Shown piece after piece: positions 23,031 through 45,325 of a stretch of DNA of 64,000 bases. The position numbers and the translations under genes are program-made. The notes under the pieces were generated by a model. The model worked only from the letters and a program-made list of their open reading frames with translations, was not told the DNA's origin and did not search any database. Position 1 is the stretch's first letter, and each line of letters starts with the position of its first letter. Where the stretch lies: NCBI GenBank assembly GCA_964404855.1, contig CAYOLO010000001.1, positions 158,245 to 222,244 of the forward strand, written 5' to 3'. Source of the DNA: an uncultured Gammaproteobacteria bacterium (lineage in GTDB: Bacteria; Patescibacteriota; Microgenomatia; CAYQLK01).

Positions 23031-23483
23031 GGGGATGTATTGCCTCGACGAAATAGCTCGTTAAAAACTGCAAGCCGAGTGATTCTAAATAACTCGCAAA
23101 ATATTTTTAGAAAAAATAACTGTCAGCAAAATTTCTGACAAAGTAAACGGTTCTCTTGCAGGATTGTTTGCTCCTCGTCCGTCTGCTTACGCTTTTGCCT
23201 AAGTTAGGCCGATAAGGACTTTAAATGGTTTTTCTCCAACGGAACTATTTAGGGTACAACTTAGTTGGAGTCAAAGCGCTCATTTGCTAATTATTGGGTA
23301 TGCGGAAAGATATTATTAATATCTCTTAATAAAGATATTTATAATTTAAATTAGATAGTTTTGACCTCTAACTTGTTAGTGAGACTAAGGGCTCAGAATG
23401 ATTTTTATAAACACTAACTACGCTTGTAGAAGTTTTTGTCGGAATATTATCGGACGCGGGTTCATAGCCCGCCATCTCCACCA
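23031..23483 (+). ncRNA. ssrA: tmRNA (SsrA), standard one-piece form
   Basis: 5' end GGGGATGTATTGCCTCGACG is close to the canonical GGGGCUGAUUCUGGAUUCGACG. 3' end GGACGCGGGTTCATAGCCCGCCATCTCCACCA gives a T-arm and an acceptor strand pairing with the 5' GGGGATG, with a G3:U70 pair and encoded CCA. An internal open frame ends ...NGSLAGLFAPRPSAYAFA-TAA (stop at 23200–23202), consistent with a tag peptide of the ...AYAxA class. smpB is encoded 2.7 kb downstream. Confidence 0.85.
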
Positions 23484-28902: not shown

Positions 28903-28992
28903 TGGCGGAGAGAGGGGGATTCGAACCCCCGATACGCTTACGCGTAAACCTGCTTTCCAAGCAAGCGCCATAGGCCTCTAGGCGACCTCTCC
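28903..28992 (-). tRNA. tRNA-Ser (anticodon GGA), class II long variable arm, CCA encoded
   Basis: Revcomp GGAGAGGTCGCCTAGAGGCCTATGGCGCTTGCTTGGAAAGCAGGTTTACGCGTAAGCGTATCGGGGGTTCGAATCCCCCTCTCTCCGCCA. Acceptor 7 bp, anticodon stem CTTGC/GCAGG with loop TTGGAAA, long variable arm, T-loop TTCGAAT. Confidence 0.85.
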
Positions 28993-29677: not shown

Positions 29678-29788
29678 AATTCCCCTCGTTCTTTTGGAAT
29701 CAAGCGCTCGTAGCTCAGTTTAGGAAATCAGCAGAATAAATTCCCTGATATCCACTGAACTACAAACGGTCAAAATTAAAATTTGTTC

Positions 29789-29861
29789 GCGCTCGTAGCT
29801 CAGTGGATAGAGTATCAGATTGCGGATCTGAGGGTCGCAGGTTCGAATCCTGCCGGGCGCA
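29789..29861 (+). tRNA. tRNA-Arg (anticodon GCG), CCA not encoded
   Basis: GCGCTCG-TA-GCTC-AGTGGATA-GAGT-A-TCAGA-TTGCGGA-TCTGA-GGGTC-GCAGG-TTCGAAT-CCTGC-CGGGCGC-A. Perfect 5-bp anticodon stem, loop TTGCGGA (U33, G34-C35-G36). Confidence 0.75.
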
Positions 29862-29948: not shown

Positions 29949-30038
29949 GGAGGGGTCGCATAGTGGACTAGTGCGGTCGTCTTGAAAACGACTAAGGGTT
30001 TACGCCCTTCGAGAGTTCGAATCTCTCCCCCTCCGCCA
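29949..30038 (+). tRNA. tRNA-Ser (anticodon TGA), CCA encoded; attachment site of the downstream integrated element
   Basis: GGAGGGGTCGCATAGTGGACTAGTGCGGTCGTCTTGAAAACGACTAAGGGTTTACGCCCTTCGAGAGTTCGAATCTCTCCCCCTCCGCCA. Anticodon stem GTCGT/ACGAC, loop CTTGAAA, long variable arm. Confidence 0.85.
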
Positions 30039-31535
30039 AGTTTTACATTCAGCGAAATTGAAAGATGTTGCCTCGGCGCAAAGCGCCTCGGCATGGTATT
30101 TTTCCGCTATTTTGAAGGCATTTTTGAAATCCAAAACCAAAGTGCGGTCGGCAATGCGGAAGTTCGAACCAATCTTTTTGAGAAAATCCCGAATCCTTTC
30201 GGGATTTTCTTGTTGAGCGTATTTTTCGGCTTGGTTGGCGTCTTTTAGAAAGGCAATGGCAAGTTCGAACCGATTATTGCTCTTTCGCCCAAAAGCATGG
30301 ATTTTTTCTTCCAAATCTTTTTTAGCGAGAATGAGCTTGTACTTTTTAGCGGTATATTCCGCTTGCGACAAATTGCCGTCCAGTTGTAAATCAAGCAAGC
30401 GATCAAGTTTTGTTTCTATCTCTACAAGCTCATTTCTCGCTTTTTGGGCGAAAGAGCTTTCCGCTTGGGCAATTTTAATTTTTTCGTTTTCGAAAAAATT
30501 GATTGATGCGTTTGCCCAAGCGGAAGACAAAGAAACTTTTTTGATTTCTTCTTTTATTTGAAAAGTGATGGCGTCCTCTCTCGCATACCTTTGCGAACAA
30601 GGATTTTTCCGTTTGGTACATCGCAAATAATTATGCCCTTTTTGCGTTTCGGTGGTAATGAAACAGCCACACTCTCCGCAACGGAAAAATCCTCTATACA
30701 CATAAGGTTTGAGTTTTGGCGATTTCGGTTTGCTTTTGTTCGCCATCACTTCTTGGCATAAATCAAAAAGTTTCTTTGTGATAATCGGTTCGTGCTTTCC
30801 GTCATACAATTCGCCGTTGTACTCAATCATTCCATAATAGATTTTGTTTTTCAGCATATACTGATAATTTGAGACGGAAAGCATTTTGCCTTTCTTGCCA
30901 ACCAAGCCCAAGGAATTGATAATCTTTCGGATTTGAGCGAGGGGGTATTCGCCAGTTGCGTACATTTCAAAAGCCCGCTTGATATATTTTGCTTTTTCTT
31001 TGTCCACGGCAATACAGCGGGCGTTTTTGTCGTTTATATAGCCCAATGGCGCCCAAGCGGGCCATATTCCATTTCGCAATTTCTGGCGAATACCCCTCTT
31101 TATATTTTCCGAAAGATTATCCACATAATATTTTGATTGCCCAAAAGCAATGGACAACATAAATTTTCCCTGCGGTGTCGGATCAAACCAAAAAGTTGGA
31201 AATTTTAGCGTGGTAATTTTTCCAGTATCCACCAAGTAAATTATTCGTCCGCCGTCTATGGAATTACGAGCAAGGCGGTCAGGGTGCCACGCTAAAATTC
31301 CTTCGGCTTCATTTTTCTCTATGCTTGCCACCATTTCGTTAAAAATCTCTCTGCCCGGCTCTTTGGCGGTTTTGCTTTCCACAAATTCACTGACGATATT
31401 TAATCCTTCCTTTTTGGCATATTCTCGCAATTCAAACATTTGTGCCTCAATACTCAAAACCTGCCTTTCGGGTTCGTCCGTGGATTTACGGGCATAGAGA
31501 AAAATCTTTTTGGTTTGTAAATTTATGTTGTCCAT
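30000..31535 (-). CDS. Large serine recombinase (resolvase/invertase catalytic domain + recombinase domain + zinc ribbon + coiled coil)
   Basis: 511 aa. N-terminal catalytic motif IFLYARKSTDEPERQVLSIEAQ (YxRxST...Q with nucleophile Ser). Zinc ribbon CGECGCF...CTKRK, then C-terminal coiled coil. Last 13 codons overlap the 3' end of tRNA-Ser(TGA) on the opposite strand. Confidence 0.85.
   Translation of the reverse strand: MDNINLQTKKIFLYARKSTDEPERQVLSIEAQMFELREYAKKEGLNIVSEFVESKTAKEPGREIFNEMVASIEKNEAEGILAWHPDRLARNSIDGGRIIYLVDTGKITTLKFPTFWFDPTPQGKFMLSIAFGQSKYYVDNLSENIKRGIRQKLRNGIWPAWAPLGYINDKNARCIAVDKEKAKYIKRAFEMYATGEYPLAQIRKIINSLGLVGKKGKMLSVSNYQYMLKNKIYYGMIEYNGELYDGKHEPIITKKLFDLCQEVMANKSKPKSPKLKPYVYRGFFRCGECGCFITTETQKGHNYLRCTKRKNPCSQRYAREDAITFQIKEEIKKVSLSSAWANASINFFENEKIKIAQAESSFAQKARNELVEIETKLDRLLDLQLDGNLSQAEYTAKKYKLILAKKDLEEKIHAFGRKSNNRFELAIAFLKDANQAEKYAQQENPERIRDFLKKIGSNFRIADRTLVLDFKNAFKIAEKYHAEALCAEATSFNFAECKTWRRGRDSNSRRA
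30033..30228. repeat. IR-1a: inverted-repeat copy overlapping the recombinase 3' coding end (partner 31568–31783)
   Basis: Revcomp of 30039–30170 is identical to 31648–31783. Further shared blocks (aaaagattggttcg; gaaaaatacgctcaac) extend it to ~30228. Contains hairpin aaaatcccgaa-tcct-ttcgggatttt (30183–30208). Confidence 0.8.
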
Positions 31536-31567
31536 ATTGTTTTGAAATTAGTTTTTGGGCAATCAAA

Positions 31568-31783
31568 GAAAAATACGCTCAACCTTTCGCCAAAGGCGAA
31601 AGAAAAAAGATTGGTTCGCAAAATTTCATTTTGCCAGAGCTTCGCTCTGCGAACTTCCGCATTGCCGACCGCACTTTGGTTTTGGATTTCAAAAATGCCT
31701 TCAAAATAGCGGAAAAATACCATGCCGAGGCGCTTTGCGCCGAGGCAACATCTTTCAATTTCGCTGAATGTAAAACTTGGCGG
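31568..31783. repeat. IR-1b: inverted copy of the recombinase 3' end located just upstream of the recombinase start
   Basis: Encodes in the + frame ...NFRIADRTLVLDFKNAFKIAEKYHAEALCAEATSFNFAECKTWR, identical to the recombinase C-terminus. Carries a 33-nt insertion (31615–31647). A different hairpin ctttcgcc-aaa-ggcgaaag sits at the position of the IR-1a hairpin. Confidence 0.8.
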
Positions 31784-32120
31784 TGTTTTTTGGACGAAGT
31801 TCGAACATTTTTTGAGCAAAACCCCCAATAAGGAAGCCAGCCCCGCCGTCGCTCGGAAACCTCGCCACCCCGCAAAAAAGTTTTCTTCACATTTTTTGAT
31901 TTGCGCGCGCCGGATTTTTTCTTCTAAAAGGAAAAGAAAACTTTTTTGCGGGGTTCTGCTCTTAACGAGCAGGACGGCGGAGCTGTCCGCTTTTTGTATT
32001 CGCTCGGGCGTGGCGGAATTCCCCCCAAACCCCCCTTCCGCCACGCCCTCGCGGGGACGATTCTTTTTTTCGGCGGAATTTGAGGCTGTATTTTGCAAAG
32101 CAAAATGCGCCACCAAAAGG
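31778..32120. repeat. IR-2a: GC-rich palindrome-dense repeat (inverted partner 37643–37985)
   Basis: ~310 nt essentially identical to the revcomp of 37674–37985. Contains an 18-bp perfect inverted repeat CCCCGCAAAAAAGTTTTC (31868–31885) / GAAAACTTTTTTGCGGGG (31936–31953). Also a 13-bp perfect inverted repeat GGGCGTGGCGGAA (32006–32018) / TTCCGCCACGCCC (32036–32048). Long ORFs on both strands are artefacts of GC-rich palindromes. Confidence 0.8.
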
Positions 32121-32280
32121 GATGTTGCACTTGACCCACCCAACCCATTCGCGGGCAACGTTAAGGAACTCCCTAAAGATTCATTTACAAAATTGTTTAA
32201 ATTAGTTATCATTATAGTATCAAGAAAGAAACCTTTATATTATATTCTATATACTATAATGTTATATAATTAGAAAAGAT

Positions 32281-32484
32281 ATGTCAAATAATAAAATTGC
32301 TGAAAACTTAAAGAAACTACGGGCTAAAAAAGGGCTTTCCCTTGAGAAAATAGCTCGCCTTGCCGATTTATCCCTTAACACTATTGTTAAGGTTGAAAAC
32401 GGAGTAAATACAAACCCAACAATTGAAACACTAACTAAGATCGCCAAGGCGCTTGAGGTTGGCGTTGATGATTTAATAAAGTAA
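32281..32484 (+). CDS. XRE-family HTH regulator; probable R-M controller (C) protein
   Basis: 67 aa: KLRAKKGLSLEKIARLADLSLNTIVKVENGVNTNPTIETLTKIAKALEV is a canonical XRE helix-turn-helix. Size and position directly upstream of a DNA methyltransferase match C proteins. Confidence 0.65.
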   Translation: MSNNKIAENLKKLRAKKGLSLEKIARLADLSLNTIVKVENGVNTNPTIETLTKIAKALEVGVDDLIK

Positions 32485-32486
32485 TT

Positions 32487-33269
32487 ATGCCAATTTTTAA
32501 TGATTTAAATTTAGATAGTTGGAAAGAATCAGAAATTTTAACTGATAGCCTTTGGATTATTCCCGAAAGAGATAAAACAGGAAAACATAATGGCTTTTAT
32601 CACGGCAATTTTATTCCGCAAATTCCACACCAGTTGATTTTGAGATATACAAAGAAAAATGAAATTGTTTTTGATCCATTTTTAGGAAGTGGGACAACCG
32701 CCTATGAAGCGGAAAGTCTAAACAGAAATTTTATCGGCGTAGATATCCAAAAAAAGCTTGTTGATTATGTCGGTAAAAATATTGAGCCAAAAAATAATTT
32801 CTCTGATTTGATTGTTGGCGATAGCACAAAAATTGAAACTTTTGAAAAAGTAAAAGAAGTTTTAAAAAATCACAAAAAGAAAAATATTCAATTGGCAATT
32901 TTGCACCCGCCATATGCCGACATAATTAAATTTAGTGATTTAAAAGATGATTTATCAAATGCCAAATCTCTAAAAGAATTTTTAGGGAAATTTGCAGAGG
33001 TTTTAAAAAATACAATTGATATTTTAGAAAATGGTAGATATTTAGCAATTGTCATCGGCGATAAATACACAGCTGGCAAATGGATACCTTTGGGATTTTA
33101 TTGTATGAATGAAGCGCAAAAATTAGGATTGACACTAAAAAGTATTATAATTAAGAATATGGCGGGCAATCGCGCCAAACAAAACAAAGAAAGGATTTGG
33201 CGATACAGGGCGCTTTCAAGCGATTATTATATTTTTAAACACGAATATATTTTAATTTTCAAAAAATAA
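32487..33269 (+). CDS. DNA methyltransferase, beta-class N6-adenine/N4-cytosine (motif I before motif IV)
   Basis: FDPFLGSGTTAYEAESLNRNFIGVDI (AdoMet motif I, ParB-Mtase/N6_N4_Mtase type) and ILHPPYADII (motif IV (D/S)PPY). Confidence 0.8.
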   Translation: MPIFNDLNLDSWKESEILTDSLWIIPERDKTGKHNGFYHGNFIPQIPHQLILRYTKKNEIVFDPFLGSGTTAYEAESLNRNFIGVDIQKKLVDYVGKNIEPKNNFSDLIVGDSTKIETFEKVKEVLKNHKKKNIQLAILHPPYADIIKFSDLKDDLSNAKSLKEFLGKFAEVLKNTIDILENGRYLAIVIGDKYTAGKWIPLGFYCMNEAQKLGLTLKSIIIKNMAGNRAKQNKERIWRYRALSSDYYIFKHEYILIFKK

Positions 33270-33271
33270 TT

Positions 33272-34171
33272 ATGGAATACATAAAATCAAAATTATCAGA
33301 CGATTTAGCGCGAAAAATTATCGGTAGTCAAGAAAAAGCAACCGAGTATTTGTTGCGATTAAACGAGATTAAGCCAATACATGCCTTAAAATTCAAAACC
33401 ATTAGCCGTGGACAAAATGCGGGTAAAAAAGTTTTAGTTTTAGAAACAAAGGAACTTTGGAAAGCCGTTGTTGATAGCTGGGATTATGAGGAAAGCAAAA
33501 AGATAATCAGAGATATTTTCAAACAGACCGAAAAATACAAAAGCGGAAAAGAAGCTGACAATGCAATGGATGTGCTTATCAAAGAATGGCAATCGTTGAA
33601 ATTGGGCGATATTGCATGGCCATTTTCGCAGGGCGCTTTTGACGAGTTTGTGCAACGAGTAAATTCTGAAAAAGAAAACGGATTTGTTAAAGATGAAAAA
33701 GTGAAAGTCGCTGCGGTAAAATATAGGCGAATAAAAGAAATAAACACTGTTAGGAATGATTTTATAGAAACATTGATTTTTGAAAAAAATAACAATATTT
33801 TGCCGACATTAAATCATAGACGAGGTGTTGATTTTTTTATCAATGGAGTTTCTTTTGATCAAAAAGTCGCAAAAAGTCCGACAAATGAATTTAAAAGGCA
33901 CTTTAAAGATGAGTGGCGAGAAGTGGCAATCAAAAAACCTGAACTTGTCGCAGAATATCTCTACAAATTCCAAGACGAAGGCAGATTTGGGGCAGACCCG
34001 AGATTATTGGTTGTTTATATTGATGAAGATGTTTCAATTGATAAAATAAGAGAGATAATAAACAAAACCGACTTAAATAATCCGGTTGAAATCAATTTCA
34101 CTTACAAACATAAAAATCTTGGTGAGAAAAATTATAAAGTGCCTTGTTTTGTAATCTTATTGCATAACTAA
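33272..34171 (+). CDS. Putative Type II restriction endonuclease (inferred from position between two MTases; candidate PD-(D/E)XK core)
   Basis: 299 aa, no MTase motifs. Candidate catalytic core ...RRGVDFFINGVSFDQKV (D...DQK). Assignment is contextual. Confidence 0.35.
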   Translation: MEYIKSKLSDDLARKIIGSQEKATEYLLRLNEIKPIHALKFKTISRGQNAGKKVLVLETKELWKAVVDSWDYEESKKIIRDIFKQTEKYKSGKEADNAMDVLIKEWQSLKLGDIAWPFSQGAFDEFVQRVNSEKENGFVKDEKVKVAAVKYRRIKEINTVRNDFIETLIFEKNNNILPTLNHRRGVDFFINGVSFDQKVAKSPTNEFKRHFKDEWREVAIKKPELVAEYLYKFQDEGRFGADPRLLVVYIDEDVSIDKIREIINKTDLNNPVEINFTYKHKNLGEKNYKVPCFVILLHN

Positions 34172-34175
34172 AATT

Positions 34176-35249
34176 ATGAATTATATCGGCAGTAAATTAT
34201 CATTATTGGAATTTTTAGAAGAATCAATTAATAAAGTAGTTGATAAAAACTGCGATACTTTTTGTGATTTATTTGCGGGAACTGGAATTGTTGGAAGTTA
34301 TTTTAAAAGAAAGGGTTATAAAATAATCGCTAATGATATTCAATATTACAGCTATGTTTTAAATAGGCACTATATAGGAAATCACAAAGAATTAAATTTT
34401 GCAAAACTAACAAAAGAAATCCCCAATTTAAAAAGTATTGATGTAAAAAATAGGAAAAATTTTGTTTGCAATTATTTATCAGATTTAAAAGGTGTAAAAG
34501 GATTTATTTATAAAAATTATTGTCTTGGAGGATCAAAAGATCAGACAGAACCACGACAATATTTTTCCGATGAAAACGGAATGCGTTGCGATGCTATCCG
34601 TCAAAAAATTGAAAACTGGAAAGAGCAAAGTTTAATTTCTAATGACGAATATTATTTTTTGATTACAAGTTTAGTTGAGTCAATTGATAAATACGCAAAT
34701 ACGGCTTCCGTATATGGTGCTTTTCTGAAAAAACTAAAAAAGACAGCTCAAAATAATTTAATTTTAAAACCCGCTGAATTGATAATAAACGACCAAGACC
34801 ACGAAGTTTTTAACGAAGATATAAATAAAGTAGCAGGAAAAATTAAAGGCGATATTTTGTATTTAGATCCACCATATAATCAAAGACAATACGCGACAAA
34901 TTATCATATGCTTGAAACTATCGCAAAATATGATAATCCTGAAATTCATGGAAAAACTGGTTTGCGCGAATATCAAAATCAAAAGTCCCTTTATTGTTCA
35001 AGGACACAAGTAAAAAAAGCATTTAAGGATTTGATTTTGAAAGCAAAAGCAAAATATATCTTTTTAAGCTATAACAACGAGGGTTTAATGACTTTAGGCG
35101 ATATTCAAGAAATAATGAGCTTACGGGGCAAATACGGTAATTTTACGAAAGAATATAATCGTTTTAAGGCGGATAAGTCAGAAAACAGAAACTATACTGC
35201 GAATAAAACTGTTGAGTATTTGCATTATGTAGTTTGTGAAAAAGCATAA
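34176..35249 (+). CDS. Dam-family (D12 class, alpha-type) N6-adenine DNA methyltransferase
   Basis: N-terminal NYIGSKLSLLEFL...FCDLFAGTGIVG (D12-class motif X/I) and DILYLDPPYNQRQYATNYH (motif IV DPPY). Confidence 0.8.
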   Translation: MNYIGSKLSLLEFLEESINKVVDKNCDTFCDLFAGTGIVGSYFKRKGYKIIANDIQYYSYVLNRHYIGNHKELNFAKLTKEIPNLKSIDVKNRKNFVCNYLSDLKGVKGFIYKNYCLGGSKDQTEPRQYFSDENGMRCDAIRQKIENWKEQSLISNDEYYFLITSLVESIDKYANTASVYGAFLKKLKKTAQNNLILKPAELIINDQDHEVFNEDINKVAGKIKGDILYLDPPYNQRQYATNYHMLETIAKYDNPEIHGKTGLREYQNQKSLYCSRTQVKKAFKDLILKAKAKYIFLSYNNEGLMTLGDIQEIMSLRGKYGNFTKEYNRFKADKSENRNYTANKTVEYLHYVVCEKA

Positions 35250-35266
35250 ACTATAAGCTATGAAAT

Positions 35267-37642
35267 ATGAAAATCCGAAAAATACAAACTATAAAAAATT
35301 ACAAATCCTTTTCGGATTTTTCTTGGGATAAATTTTGTAAAAATTGTTCCAATAACGAACAAACACTCTCTAATTACAATGTAATCTTTGGAGAAAATGG
35401 CTCTGGGAAGTCATCAATTTGTGATATTCTGAAAAATCTTTCGCAAATTCAAAATTTTCCAAACACTTCACCCGATCTCGCGGAAATAGAAATAAAAAAT
35501 GGAAGTAATCAAGTTTATAAATTTGAAAATGGAAGTTGGACACCAAACCAGTTAAATAAAAATTCCTTTTTATTTTTTGATGTCGATTTTATTAGTGCCA
35601 ATGTTCACACGCATGGCGAACGGTCAAATCAACAAGGCAGACATTCACAAAATTCAGGGAAAATGATTATTGATTTAGACGATAAGGCAAATCAGCTAAA
35701 AATCGTTGTAAAAGAAAAGAAAGAGGAATCGGATAATTTTGACAAAATTAATGCCGATATTTTAAACAAAAATTTTACCGATAAAGACAAAGAGCTTTCC
35801 GCTATTTACAAAGATAAAAGCGAACAAGAAATAAAGGATGAAATTTCAAAAAAACAGGAAGAAGCCAAAAAAATTGAGTTGGATTTATCAGCATTACAAA
35901 AGATAAACAAAAAATATTCGGAAATAAGTCAGTTACCCATTATCAATCAGCTTTCTTTCTCTTCTTCAATATCCACAAAAGAAATCTACTCGGAATTAGT
36001 TTTGAGACAGTTAAAGGAAAAAGCGCAAGATCAGGCGGACGAAAAAATAAAAGCACATTTTGAAAAACACAAAAGATTTATTGAGACAGCCAAGGATCAA
36101 ATACCGAAGGATTATCAAAAATCCGATTGTCCGTTGTGTATGCAACCCCTCGCTAATGCTTCAAAATTTATTGAATATTATAGGATTGCTTTTGATCAAA
36201 CATATGAAAACGAGAAAAGAAAATTTTTAACGGACATACAGAATTTAAAAAGTGAATTGGAAACCTTAAAATCCTCAATAAGTCTTTTACCGACAAAAGT
36301 GCTTGGAATTTTTAATTCTTTAGAAAAAATCAAAACTGATTTTGAAATTCAGGATATTTATAAACTCGAAGAAAAAACGGAATATACCGAAAAATTTAGT
36401 AAAATTTCTATCGCTCAAATAGACGAGCTTATTTTGAATTTAGAAGCGCTGAAAAGTATTGAGCGAAAAGAAATAAAACTTTCAGAAACTTATGACAAAA
36501 TAACAGACGGAGTGAAAGAAATAGCAAGTAAAATTAATGATTTTAATAAAATAATTGACGACAAAAACAAGGTCATTTCTGCGTTCAAGGGTAAATATTC
36601 TGATCAAAATAAAATTACTAACGAAATTCAGGAAAAAACTAAAAATCAAGCAGAGCTTCAAGAAACAACCCAGTTTTTAATAAATGACAAAATTCAGTCA
36701 ATCAAAAATCAAAACGCGGCGGTTCTAAAACAAAAAGCTTTGGCTGAAGTATTGAAAAAAGCTCAAGAAGATTTGAAAAATCATCTCGCCAATAGCATAC
36801 CAGAAAGCGTTATTATAAAAATGATTGATATTTTAGGAAAGTTTAATTTAAGTTTTACGCTTGAACATATCAAACCAGCACCAAACACGAAGGACTATTC
36901 TTTTTCATTTAAAATTAAAGATCAAAAAGGGCATGAGAGAGATTTTAAAGATGGGCTTTCAGAGGGCGAGCGACAGTTGATTTCCTTGGCTTTTTTCTTT
37001 TCTATCAATGAAAGTTTGTTGGACAAATCAAATATAGTTTTGATTTTTGATGACCCAATAACCAGTTTAGATTCGCCAAATTTGAAAATACTTGCCGACT
37101 TGATTCACGAAAAAACACAGGAATTTTCGCAAGTAATTATTTTTACTCATCACCCTTTATTTTATAAATATGTGGCTAAATGCGAAAATCCTAATCCGTG
37201 CAAATTTGGCGTTTTGAAAAATCATGACGCTTTTGGTGGTAGTTTTATTTTCTTTGATCCCGGATTTGATTTAACGGCAGAAATGCAAAAGTGCAATGAG
37301 GAAATAAAACAGAACGCACAAAGCGGAAATTTAAAACCCGAAGAAATTGCCTTGAAATACGGACAACTTTTGCGTCTTGCCGTTGAAAAATTTATCAAGC
37401 ACGAATTATTGATGTGGAATAAAGAAAGTAATTTTGAAAAAGAAATAATAGCAAATTTATCAAAAAGCAAAAGTAAAATTCAAAAACTAGATGACAGTGA
37501 TTTGGAAATAATGACAAACATTCATAAATACTGCAATCATTCAAACCTTTTACATGCGGATAAAGAAAATCCGTCGGCACTTTCGGAACTGATGACACAT
37601 ATTGATAAATTTGTTATTATTCAAGATAAGGTAAATCTGTAA
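35267..37642 (+). CDS. RloC-like protein: Rad50/SMC-type split ABC ATPase with coiled-coil CxxC zinc hook and C-terminal candidate anticodon-nuclease domain
   Basis: 791 aa. Walker A GENGSGKSSICDIL near the N-terminus. ~450 aa of coiled coil with central hook DYQKSDCPLCMQPL. Signature/Q-like SEGERQLISLAFFF, Walker B/D-loop VLIFDDPITSLD, H-loop IIFTHH. C-terminal ~150 aa contains R-x3-E (RLAVE) followed by His-containing segment HKYCNHSNLLH, reminiscent of the PrrC/RloC nuclease triad. Confidence 0.5.
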   Translation: MKIRKIQTIKNYKSFSDFSWDKFCKNCSNNEQTLSNYNVIFGENGSGKSSICDILKNLSQIQNFPNTSPDLAEIEIKNGSNQVYKFENGSWTPNQLNKNSFLFFDVDFISANVHTHGERSNQQGRHSQNSGKMIIDLDDKANQLKIVVKEKKEESDNFDKINADILNKNFTDKDKELSAIYKDKSEQEIKDEISKKQEEAKKIELDLSALQKINKKYSEISQLPIINQLSFSSSISTKEIYSELVLRQLKEKAQDQADEKIKAHFEKHKRFIETAKDQIPKDYQKSDCPLCMQPLANASKFIEYYRIAFDQTYENEKRKFLTDIQNLKSELETLKSSISLLPTKVLGIFNSLEKIKTDFEIQDIYKLEEKTEYTEKFSKISIAQIDELILNLEALKSIERKEIKLSETYDKITDGVKEIASKINDFNKIIDDKNKVISAFKGKYSDQNKITNEIQEKTKNQAELQETTQFLINDKIQSIKNQNAAVLKQKALAEVLKKAQEDLKNHLANSIPESVIIKMIDILGKFNLSFTLEHIKPAPNTKDYSFSFKIKDQKGHERDFKDGLSEGERQLISLAFFFSINESLLDKSNIVLIFDDPITSLDSPNLKILADLIHEKTQEFSQVIIFTHHPLFYKYVAKCENPNPCKFGVLKNHDAFGGSFIFFDPGFDLTAEMQKCNEEIKQNAQSGNLKPEEIALKYGQLLRLAVEKFIKHELLMWNKESNFEKEIIANLSKSKSKIQKLDDSDLEIMTNIHKYCNHSNLLHADKENPSALSELMTHIDKFVIIQDKVNL

Positions 37643-37985
37643 ATTTTTGGTGGCGCGCCAGTTTTCAACTGGCACAGCCTCAAATTCCGCCGAAAAAAAG
37701 AATCGTCCCCGCGAGGGCGTGGCGGAAGGGGGGTTTGGGGGGAATTCCGCCACGCCCGAGCGAATACAAAAAGCGGACAGCTCCGCCGTCCTGCTCGTTA
37801 AGAGCAGAACCCCGCAAAAAAGTTTTCTTTTCCTTTTAGAAGAAAAAATCCGGCGCGCGCAAATCAAAAAATGTGAAGAAAACTTTTTTGCGGGGTGGCG
37901 AGGTTTCCGAGCGACGGCGGGGCTGGCTTCCTTATTGGGGGTTTTGCTCAAAAAATGTTCGAACTTCGTCCAAAAAACACCGCCA
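37643..37985. repeat. IR-2b: GC-rich palindrome-dense repeat (inverted partner of 31778–32120), ending in CCGCCA
   Basis: See IR-2a. Contains the same 18-bp and 13-bp perfect internal palindromes in mirrored order. Ends ...CCAAAAAACACCGCCA|GGG at 37985. Confidence 0.8.
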
Positions 37986-38096
37986 GGGTTTTTGTTCGGT
38001 GTACAATTAATTTGTTATGTATTTTGGGCAAAAAGTAGTTGGATTTAATCAATTTTCATTTAATAAATTTTTAATAGAGGGGCGGTGAGTAGGTAA

Positions 38097-39232: not shown

Positions 39233-39324
39233 TGGCGGAGGGGGAGAGATTCGAACTCTCGGAAAGGAAAAATCCCTTCAGCAGTTTTCGAAACTGCCGC
39301 ACTAGTCCACTATGCGACCCCTCC
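39233..39324 (-). tRNA. tRNA-Ser (anticodon CGA), CCA encoded
   Basis: Revcomp GGAGGGGTCGCATAGTGGACTAGTGCGGCAGTTTCGAAAACTGCTGAAGGGATTTTTCCTTTCCGAGAGTTCGAATCTCTCCCCCTCCGCCA. Acceptor, D and T arms identical to tRNA-Ser(TGA) at 29949. Anticodon stem GCAGT/ACTGC, loop TTCGAAA. Confidence 0.85.
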
Positions 39325-42079: not shown

Positions 42080-42172
<93 letters not shown>

Positions 42173-42200
42173 CAGAGCTTGTATATTCTACCTGACTGGC

Positions 42201-43601: not shown

Positions 43602-44028
43602 TTTCATATTTGGAGTAATAAAGGTCGATAGTTGTTTTTATAGTTACTCGCCAAAATTTTTCCAAAAACTGCCTCCGACATTTTTGTCATCAATTTGGCT
43701 ACGTCCTGCGTTAAGAATGAATTAAATATTCATTCTCTCGTCGAGACATGAAAACCTGAAACTAAAAGGCAAGAAAAAGCCCGCTTGGAAACCAAGCGGG
43801 CTAGGGGTTGACGGCTCGAAGCCGAGAAAGAGGTGTTTGTGGCCTGAAGTCCAAGCTTAACGGATAGGTCCGTTGGCTAGAGCGAGAGCTTGGTTAAAAG
43901 CGACTGAAACACAGTTTCTCTGGTTTGAGCCAGGATGTGGAGACGAATTTCTTCGACATGGGGAGGTTGAGGTGCAAGCGAGCGCGCGTGAGCGCTAACC
44001 CTCCCTCAGGCGGACGGTCGAGGACGTC

Positions 44029-44988
44029 TTAGATCTGCAGGGCAAAGGCGGCCGGTTTGGGCTGCCAAAGCTGATGCATCGAACTCGAAGGGGAGCCGCG
44101 GGCGATGTTGCGGCCGTGTTCGGTGTTCGTGTTGCGGAGGAGTTCGGATTCGCCGGGGGTCGCTGCTGCGTTGTTGCGATGAACGGTGAAGACTGTGCCG
44201 GCGACGATCGGTGCGATGAGCGGATACGCGGATCCTGCTCCAAAGCGCTTGAGCGACGAAATCATGGCCGTTCCGGCTGAGGCGATGGCCCTTCGGAAAT
44301 ACGAGTTCGAGGTTCTGACGGCGCCGACGAATGTGATGAAGGCGGCGTGTAGTCGACCGAAGATCGCGCTGGTGACAGGATGCGTCTTGCGCGGGCTCGT
44401 CGTGGTGTTTTCGGCGGACAGCGTGTCGATGGCCTTGGCCACATGCGATGCACGTTTAAGGCCGAATCGTTTGCTTATCCCCGTGTCGTCGTCAAGTGAT
44501 GCCGAGTTGAAGAATGTGGTGCCGGCAAAACTTCGAGAACCCCTCGAGGTATGACGATGACCCATTTCTTGCCGTCGGATGTACCGAGGACTGGCGTTTT
44601 CAACGAGCGGGCCCATGTTGGCTACTCGCAGAAGGACCACGAAAGCGACCGTGACGGCGACGAATGCCCAGAGCTCCACAGGTCGGGACTGAGCGGTGGT
44701 GTTGCCGATGGTCGAGGCGACGGAGTCGGTGATGCCGAAGAAGACGTTCGCGACGTCGGTGACCGCACTGGTTGTGCTGCCGCGTATGTCGGGAAGGTTC
44801 GTATTCGGAGTCGAGAGGTCGTTGGTCGAAGGCGAGATTGCCTGCGAATCGACGGGCTCAGACAGGCTGGCTGCCGAAGCGCTCGACCATTCAGTCGCGA
44901 GCGTTACGAAGACGGCGAAGGCAGCGATGATGGCGATGAGCCACGCGATGCGTTTTCCGCCGACCGTTTGGGTAATTTCCCTGCTCAA
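44029..44988 (-). CDS. Hypothetical membrane protein encoded in an anomalously GC-rich (~60%) island
   Basis: 319 aa, longest ORF of an island (≈43780–45010) where all six frames are open. Two predicted TM helices (IAWLIAIIAAFAVFVTLA; LWAFVAVTVAFVVLL). No family recognised. Coding status uncertain. Confidence 0.3.
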   Translation of the reverse strand: MSREITQTVGGKRIAWLIAIIAAFAVFVTLATEWSSASAASLSEPVDSQAISPSTNDLSTPNTNLPDIRGSTTSAVTDVANVFFGITDSVASTIGNTTAQSRPVELWAFVAVTVAFVVLLRVANMGPLVENASPRYIRRQEMGHRHTSRGSRSFAGTTFFNSASLDDDTGISKRFGLKRASHVAKAIDTLSAENTTTSPRKTHPVTSAIFGRLHAAFITFVGAVRTSNSYFRRAIASAGTAMISSLKRFGAGSAYPLIAPIVAGTVFTVHRNNAAATPGESELLRNTNTEHGRNIARGSPSSSMHQLWQPKPAAFALQI

Positions 44989-45325
44989 TAGACTGGTCCT
45001 CCTTTTGTGAGGGAGTCTAGTTTTTAGACTTAAACCCTAATGTTTCAAGGGTCCAAGTCGTGTTGGTTGAAAATGAAAACTGGTCGGAACAAGTATCAGG
45101 TCTTTGTGGCTACCCTAAGATAGAGTAGTCCGAAATTCCTCCTTTTAATTGGAAAGGTACGACACTTTTCACTGGCTGTGAAATTGATGTCTAGCTAAAT
45201 TGTACACCCCGAATGCAAGTTTTTGGACTACTGTAATAAGATTGGTTGAAAAAGAAAGGATGTAAATACTCAAAATGGCTTCGTTTTTGGGTATTTTATG
45301 GTAATAGTGTGATATATTCCTAGTC

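Follow-up and report, generated by a model that had tools for sequence, protein, structure and literature searches.

Myxophage Mx8 targets a tRNA gene and uses a tyrosine recombinase as its integrase. In the IntP/IntX system of this phage the integrase crosses its own attachment (att) site, attP (PMC4383910, citing Tojo et al. 1996), and in the 'suicidal' archaeal integrases of the SSV type the recombination site lies inside the open reading frame (ORF), integration disrupting the gene and excision rebuilding it (PMC7253208). As for serine integrases, a 2014 statement (PMC4383910) holds that they were not known to target tRNA genes. Here we describe a locus in a 64,000-nt stretch of contig CAYOLO010000001.1 (hereafter the window) in which the gene of a large serine recombinase, Int, ends inside a tRNA-Ser gene, with an inverted spare copy of its 3' end just upstream of its start. 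We consider it probable that this is a self-truncating serine integrase in a tRNA-Ser island, equipped with a built-in inverted spare end.

An integrative island at tRNA-Ser(tga)

The window contains a 134-nt inverted repeat, IR1, whose two arms (A, 30033-30166; B, 31650-31783) are 100% complementary and lie 1483 nt apart; a 64-nt stretch taken from the arm has exactly two occurrences in the window and none in 100 shuffles. The initial annotation, which was made from the letters alone, had placed one arm within the 3' coding end of a recombinase and its inverted copy upstream of the recombinase start. This is indeed the layout: arm A is the 3' coding end of the 511-aa gene at 30000-31535 (reverse strand), and the end of arm B is separated from the ATG of that gene by 114 nt. 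Beyond the perfect repeat two further blocks pair, 30165-30179 with 31604-31618 (15 nt) and 30212-30227 with 31568-31583 (16 nt). We also located the insertion and the replaced hairpin reported for the upstream copy, which carries an extra 33 nt (at about 31619-31651) absent from the arm A side, and has ctttcgcc-aaa-ggcgaaag (31584-31602) where the arm A side has aaaatcccgaa-tcct-ttcgggatttt (30183-30208, with a stem that extends to 30181-30210). Both of the claimed tails could be read as well: the integrase currently ends in ...CKTWRRGRDSNSRRA, and the frame leaving arm B ends in ...CKTWRCFLDEVRTFFEQNPQ.

IR1 is shown here to be part of a 7.95-kb integrative island, spanning about 30039-37985, at the 3' end of tRNA-Ser(tga). 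The elements of this island are:

29949-30038, forward strand: tRNA-Ser(tga), the integration target (ARAGORN; Rfam tRNA)
30000-31535, reverse strand: large serine recombinase (Int), prophage form, 511 aa (Pfam Resolvase, Recombinase and Zn_ribbon_recom)
30033-30038: site 1, core CCGCCA, attL (tRNA/arm A); the same hexamer is found at all three junctions
30033-30166: IR1 arm A, which provides the P' side of attL and contains the final 44 codons of the Int body
30181-30210: hairpin inside the Int coding sequence (ENPERIRDF codons), stem of 11-14 bp
31536-31649, reverse strand: region from arm B to the ATG, a diverged copy of the Int 3' end with three hairpins (HP1, 31635-31649; HP2, 31618-31634; HP3, 31584-31602)
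31650-31783: IR1 arm B, the spare copy of the Int 3' end and the P' side of site 2
31772-32089: left arm of a second inverted repeat (IR2), tail and GC-rich hairpin spacer, the spacer being conserved in other loci
31778-31831, forward strand: site 2, core TGGCGG followed by the native tail codons CFLDEVRTFFEQNPQ and a stop
32281-37642, forward strand: cargo, comprising a controller-like helix-turn-helix protein, two type II DNA methyltransferases, a 299-aa ORF and an AAA_13 ATPase (PDC-S06-like) (Pfam, PADLOC)
37674-37991: right arm of IR2, inverted spacer and tail copy
37932-37985, reverse strand: third copy of the tail with core CCGCCA, which forms attR (P / host flank GGGTTTTTGTTCGG) and closes the element on the right

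The T-arm and acceptor end of tRNA-Ser(tga) form the B half-site. Arm A overlaps this gene by 6 nt, its terminal CCGCCA being also the 3' terminus of the tRNA, and the integrase ORF continues into the gene in antisense, which supplies the codons for the last 10 Int residues, RGRDSNSRRA. At site 2, arm B and the native tail together make up a complete inverted attP. IR2 (318 nt, 99% identity) begins where IR1 stops and brackets the 5.6-kb cargo, over which the GC content falls to 0.28-0.31 (34-37 kb of the window); its right copy reads ...ACACCGCCA and then continues into the host flank. When attL and attR are joined on paper, the tRNA-Ser followed by the host flank is restored, together with an integrase that ends in ...CKTWRCFLDEVRTFFEQNPQ.

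The crossover core (CCG within TGGCGG) sits in the reading frame of Int, 15 codons ahead of the natural stop. Integration has therefore split the gene end, fusing the body with arm A to the antisense tRNA and leaving the natural tail at attR. The reading frame of the integrase is thus altered by integration itself: the prophage carries an antisense-tRNA tail, the native tail is found at attR and at site 2, and full-length proteins with the native tail exist. An attL x attR excision would restore the native gene and require no inversion.

The geometry of the half-sites fits a serine integrase. From the end of the motif GTTCGAA to CCGCCA the distance is 11 nt in the tRNA, compared with 16 nt in the tail. 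In serine integrases the motif of the zinc-ribbon domain lies 5 bp nearer the centre in attB than in attP (Rutherford et al., PMC3783163), and the two spacings fit this shift. Only the left half-sites are clear, the right half-sites on the host side not being conserved across loci. In other loci the attR core reads CCGCAA, CCGCAG, CCGCAT, CCGCAC or CCGCCT, which narrows the exchange to CCG(C), at tRNA positions 71-74; the encoded CCA is supplied by the element.

Three further tRNA-Ser genes, gga, cga and gct (28903-28992, 39233-39324 and 42081-42173, all on the reverse strand), are unoccupied. The window's four tRNA-Ser genes share the ending CTCCGCCA, and the three free ones lie within 12 kb of the intact internal attP. 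The spacer past the tail holds long GC-rich hairpins (31867-31954 and 32001-32053, mirrored at 37809-37896) with stems of 29 nt and 18 nt, which are kept at 95-97% in two other loci (L004 and L036 in our numbering).

By all testable features of its sequence and predicted structure, the enzyme is a large serine recombinase. Its N-terminal catalytic domain matches PF00239 (E = 2e-20), followed by matches to PF07508 and PF13408 (Recombinase and zinc ribbon). Residues Y14, R16, S18 (the catalytic serine) and R62 are unchanged across 57 homologues, and the four zinc cysteines (286, 289, 306 and 313) are invariant. An AlphaFold (AF2) model built from the 57 homologues has a mean predicted local distance difference test (pLDDT) score of 82, and its helices 338-385 and 391-441 form an inserted long coiled coil. 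In a Foldseek search the full-length model matched serine-integrase chains of solved complexes (9y66, 9dxh, 9iu2, 9rah and 4kis) with E-values of 1e-18 to 1e-11, and it resembles the SPbeta-type, Bxb1, PhiC31 and LI integrases. A search of IMG/VR for a phage origin gave only one distant relative, at 58% identity.

Two integrase tails and their distribution

Homologues of Int at 70-94% identity split, exactly after ...W-R, into two tail classes. Tails of the first class (RxRDSNPR...) are the antisense of the tRNA T-arm and have variable lengths and endings. Those of the second, found in full-length homologues, share the conserved ending CFL(I/D/N)(D/E)VRTFFEQNPQ. Across 98 distinct tail DNAs the hexamer TGGCGG is unchanged (98/98), and variability decreases from third to first to second codon positions, a signature of a tail that is translated and under selection. 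At tail codons 11-17 the entropies of the first, second and third positions are 0.62/0.35/1.12; the tails were gathered by a peptide pattern that partly fixes codons 3-12, so that codons 13-17 are the free test. In the structural model the tail CFLDEVRTFFEQNPQ forms a final helix (residues 498-513, pLDDT 83-90). Alignment and model show CFLDEVRTFFEQNPQ to be the native C-terminus of the integrase family. The initial annotation had the roles reversed, in that it took the tail leaving arm B for the alternative one; it is the present tail that is antisense tRNA.

The integrase belongs to a widespread family. It falls in a 444-member protein cluster, and at least 534 genome stretches were matched. 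Scans of GTDB species genomes yielded 80 loci, and those of metagenome contigs another 120. More than 100 public loci show the architecture, the hosts being mostly metagenome-assembled genomes of Patescibacteria (candidate phyla radiation, CPR), with additional cases in Elusimicrobia at about 62% identity. In keeping with the initial annotation, related elements retain the second arm: a repeat of 133-134 nt flanks the integrase at 97% identity or more in about 30 loci, including relatives with only 61-75% Int identity. In 75 loci the integrase 3' side abuts or enters a tRNA gene, which is almost always tRNA-Ser (gct, cga, gga or tga), any isoacceptor being usable. A third tail copy of the attR type was found 1.6-5 kb from the spare tail in at least ten further loci, L003, L010, L019, L020, L029, L031, L040, L041, L043 and L047.

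We took a census of 191 integrase copies. The side of the spare fragment leads into the tail in 119 of these and into a tRNA in 5, while the integrase 3' side leads into a tRNA in 75 and into the native tail in 15. Where both sides (fragment side, integrase 3' side) could be read, the counts were:

Layout of the window (tail, tRNA): 49
Flipped layout (tRNA, tail): 1 (L135)
Native tail on both sides: 5 (L025, L026, L082, L142, L164)
tRNA-Ser on both sides: 1 (L005)

Three more loci, L038, L115 and L206, also have the fragment arm on a tRNA and are partial flipped cases, their contigs stopping inside the integrase.

These data bear on two simpler explanations of the repeat. One could view the 1.75-kb unit as an insertion sequence whose terminal inverted repeats are the arms, given that a lone recombinase gene stands between inverted repeats and that many contigs of 1.8-2.9 kb hold only this gene. 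The short contigs can be put down to assemblies breaking at the repeats. The flanks of the unit are constant in kind: on one side lies (almost always) the 3' end of a tRNA-Ser, on the other the conserved tail with spacer and cargo. The island is closed by a third site, and there are no target duplications. This reading was therefore rejected, and we give it next to no credence.

The other explanation sees the spare copy as a decaying, functionless remnant of a second, inverted copy of the element. In line with this, no start codon of the fragment is conserved across loci, and its reading frame is interrupted in L020, L029, L045, L047 and L082; for the same reasons, and with an upstream ORF limit of 50-158 codons, we discarded the idea that the fragment is an independent small gene. 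A remnant would not be expected to recur in over 100 loci of CPR classes and Elusimicrobia, spanning 61-97% Int identity, with its layout, 134-nt length and tail all preserved, nor to keep a tail conserved in a coding manner beside hairpins that covary. We thus consider the remnant explanation very improbable.

Several loci deviate from the common layout. Among the five loci with native tails on both sides, the integrase segment of L082 is flanked by two cargo modules that differ from each other, and in L025 a second tail type, CAFENIRTDF, brackets a 4.2-kb module; the modules seem to be shuffled. In L005 (5667-7589) the integrase segment lies between identical inverted tRNA-Ser(gga) genes. 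A palindromic misassembly was ruled out here, as the flanks beyond the two tRNAs differ, and the locus may represent a rearrangement between two tRNA-Ser sites. In L133, L139 and L164 the two contig ends repeat each other in inverted orientation over 1.5-2 kb, and an integrase cassette stands on either side of the cargo; this is either a genuine double structure or an artefact of assembly caused by the repeats. In L097, L106 and L141 a tRNA-Asp(gtc) or tRNA-Trp(cca), rather than a tRNA-Ser, was called beside the integrase 3' end; these may be off-target integrations or ARAGORN miscalls. L012, L030 and L046 share a 39-nt insertion (ACCCCAGGGCACTCTCTCTTGCTTCGCAATTCACCTTGT) between the fragment and the integrase start.

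Orientation of the integrase and possible role of the repeat arms

It had been proposed in the initial annotation that recombination between the arms inverts the gene and swaps its tail. The geometry of this proposal stands, as a flip of the 1.48-kb segment joins the integrase body to the other tail. The notion of a free-standing switch does not, as IR1 forms the attL end of a tRNA-Ser island with three att-type sites. Both orientations were found in public assemblies, in different hosts.

Short-read assemblers can in principle cross a perfect repeat either way. In the complete flipped locus, L135, the arms are only 86% identical and the contig is 543 kb long, so that its orientation does not reflect assembler ambiguity. 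L083 and L084 were recovered from two samples. Their integrases are 100% identical over 1983 nt and their cargoes 100% identical over 3091 nt, with the cargo inverted and the breakpoint about 206 nt past the integrase stop; by this comparison the two are isomers of one element. The arms themselves vary between elements yet co-vary within each element, and mosaic arms occur (those of L019 agree over the inner 98 nt, those of L024 over the outer part). This co-variation together with the mosaics indicates that the arms recombine with each other.

We propose the following course of events for a self-truncating integrase with a spare end. Insertion of the element removes the terminal helix from Int. 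Lacking this helix, the prophage form would be inactive or altered, which would account for the stability of the island despite an intact attP and three free tRNA-Ser targets on the same chromosome, attP x attB being the reaction that serine integrases carry out unaided (PMC3783163). Two routes could then restore the native gene: the element may excise by attL x attR, or the 1.48-kb integrase segment may invert. Inversion between the 134-nt arms would probably proceed by homologous recombination, which would also explain the identity of the arms, and would let the prophage regain a native gene and hence excise. The excised circle would hold two inverted attP-bearing repeats of about 450 nt.

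The main alternative is that orientation is fixed at integration. Here the circle has two equivalent inverted attP sites, the site used determines whether the integrase points toward or away from the tRNA, and the spare site serves the circular stage (for instance in a flip-flop like that of the 2-micron plasmid) rather than a switch after integration. Three observations agree with this: the arms of L135, at 86% identity, are a poor substrate for homologous recombination, five loci have tails on both sides, and L083 and L084 differ as isomers of integrase versus cargo. Equal use of identical attP sites predicts a ratio of about 50:50, in contrast to the 49:1 observed, and the near-perfect arms in about 30 integrated loci show that arms do recombine with each other; nor was a circular contig found. 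We therefore hold this alternative to be rather unlikely. The skew may reflect a short lifetime of the flipped state or a preference for the attP proximal to the integrase, and the flipped state could equally arise by integration via the second attP.

A number of points weigh against the self-truncating integrase with a reversible spare end. The exact protein that the window would encode in its flipped state is absent among 15 billion proteins. Among the 208 loci there is no pair with opposite orientations at one host locus, the flipped loci coming from other hosts. The 49:1 skew implies that flipping is rare, or that the flipped state is reached only via integration at the spare attP. As to the excised form, no contig has a direct terminal overlap, and L082 is not a simple circle, which leaves excision of the island a putative step; the loss of activity in the truncated Int is likewise putative. 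Canonical serine integrases do not recombine attL with attP (PMC3783163), and the integrase itself is therefore unlikely to be the invertase. Finally, the model we favour does not account for the sharp 134-nt boundary or for the hairpins.

The initial annotation had argued that the hairpin is functional as such, and compensatory changes support this. The stem inside the Int gene survives substitutions that change the amino acids (ENPVAGRDF, GNPEQCRDF, GNFSEQKNF, GNLFEQKDF, ENHEQSRDF and GINEEKLHLF): GAA/TTC is replaced by GTC/GAC, CCCG/CGGG by CACG/CGTG, and the whole stem is replaced in GNFSEQKNF, GNLFEQKDF and GINEEKLHLF. This stem is missing in the Elusimicrobia relatives. In the region upstream of the integrase, HP1, HP2 and HP3 each occur with at least 6 different stem sequences across loci, all of them paired; since the MAFFT alignment shifts the hairpins by one column, stems were listed per sequence and not as pair counts. 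The folding energy of the window's own upstream copy is unexceptional (z = -1.5). A terminator scan found none at the positions of the hairpins, with overall counts at chance level, and we discarded a role as terminators; a search of Rfam found only tRNAs and a transfer-messenger RNA (tmRNA) among known RNA families.

Such hairpins would lie in a leader transcribed from upstream of arm B, and it is conceivable that the arms act in RNA, the leader being perfectly complementary to the 3' coding end of its own message and silencing the integrase through a 134-bp duplex or as an antisense. A promoter-like site is absent between arm B and the ATG, and a leftward TTGACA-17-TAACAT is found at 32287-32259, beyond arm B. 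The promoter scan as a whole was at chance level (6 found, 4.3 expected), selection for pairing requires neither 100% identity nor a fixed length, and a silencing role leaves the native tail and the full attP of the spare copy unexplained. We regard action of the arms in RNA as improbable.

More tentatively, the self-truncating integrase may be read as an enzyme that rewrites its own C-terminal helix by its own reaction, giving an episomal and a prophage isoform. The spare end would then be a reversible toggle of activity or directionality that needs no separate directionality factor, and the free circle, with its two inverted attP repeats, would isomerise like the 2-micron plasmid. We see this as possible, though less likely than not.

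The window holds a few features apart from the island. About 1 kb at 43960-45000, between a NUDIX gene and dnaG, has 60% GC in a 38% GC genome and looks foreign; it contains a 319-aa ORF (44029-44988, reverse strand) with no Pfam match. A tmRNA gene at 23031-23483 scores 105 bits against Rfam and was not called by ARAGORN. The 5'-terminal 16 nt of tRNA-Arg(gcg) (29789-29804) recur exactly at 29704-29719, 85 nt upstream of the real gene, and this copy may be the scar of another integration event.

Comparison with known systems

We found no published description of this architecture in literature searches. In particular, we did not find described the combination of a tRNA target for a serine integrase, a spare inverted gene end with an intact attP, and a double inverted-repeat layout. 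The island represents a widespread mobile element of CPR/Patescibacteria, a group in which gene mobility is little known, and it carries defence cargo between distant lineages at 90-97% integrase identity. Should tail exchange control activity or direction, it would constitute a new, compact control of serine integrases, enzymes that are widely used in genome engineering. A natural serine integrase aimed at the conserved 3' end of tRNA-Ser is also of practical interest in itself.

The integrases of PhiC31, Bxb1, A118/LI and SPbeta have the same domain set, catalytic serine, zinc ribbon and long coiled coil as Int, and the 5-bp motif shift between host-type and element-type half-sites is common to both. 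In these phage-type systems attP lies outside the gene, whereas the crossover of Int lies inside its own ORF. The island further differs from them in targeting the 3' end of tRNA-Ser and in carrying a second, inverted attP. No directionality factor was identified in the island.

Inverted repeats in coding ends, through which inversion swaps the C-terminus of a protein, are known from the tail-fibre segments of Gin, Cin and Hin systems, from shufflons and from phase-variable hsdS genes. The Int island shares with these switches the placement of inverted repeats inside coding ends. In those systems the recombinase switches another gene via short dedicated sites, whereas here the recombinase itself would be switched, and the arms are 134-nt pieces of att sites.

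The yeast 2-micron plasmid, in which Flp acts on FRT sites within 599-bp inverted repeats that split the circle into two isomerising segments, resembles the putative circular form of the island (compare L083 and L084). Flp is a tyrosine recombinase and the plasmid replicates autonomously, whereas we saw no replication genes in the island and observed no circle.

The closest parallels are those with which we began. To our knowledge, Mx8 has no spare inverted gene end. Its IntP/IntX system has in common with Int an integrase that crosses its own attP (PMC4383910). The SSV-type integrases share with Int a recombination site within the integrase ORF; they are tyrosine recombinases whose gene is split into two pseudogenes, whereas in Int the exchange is limited to the last 15 codons and a spare end remains beside the gene. 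The island departs from both the Mx8 and the SSV kind in the class of its enzyme, a serine and not a tyrosine recombinase, and thus brings a serine recombinase into the small set of integrases known to cross their own attP.

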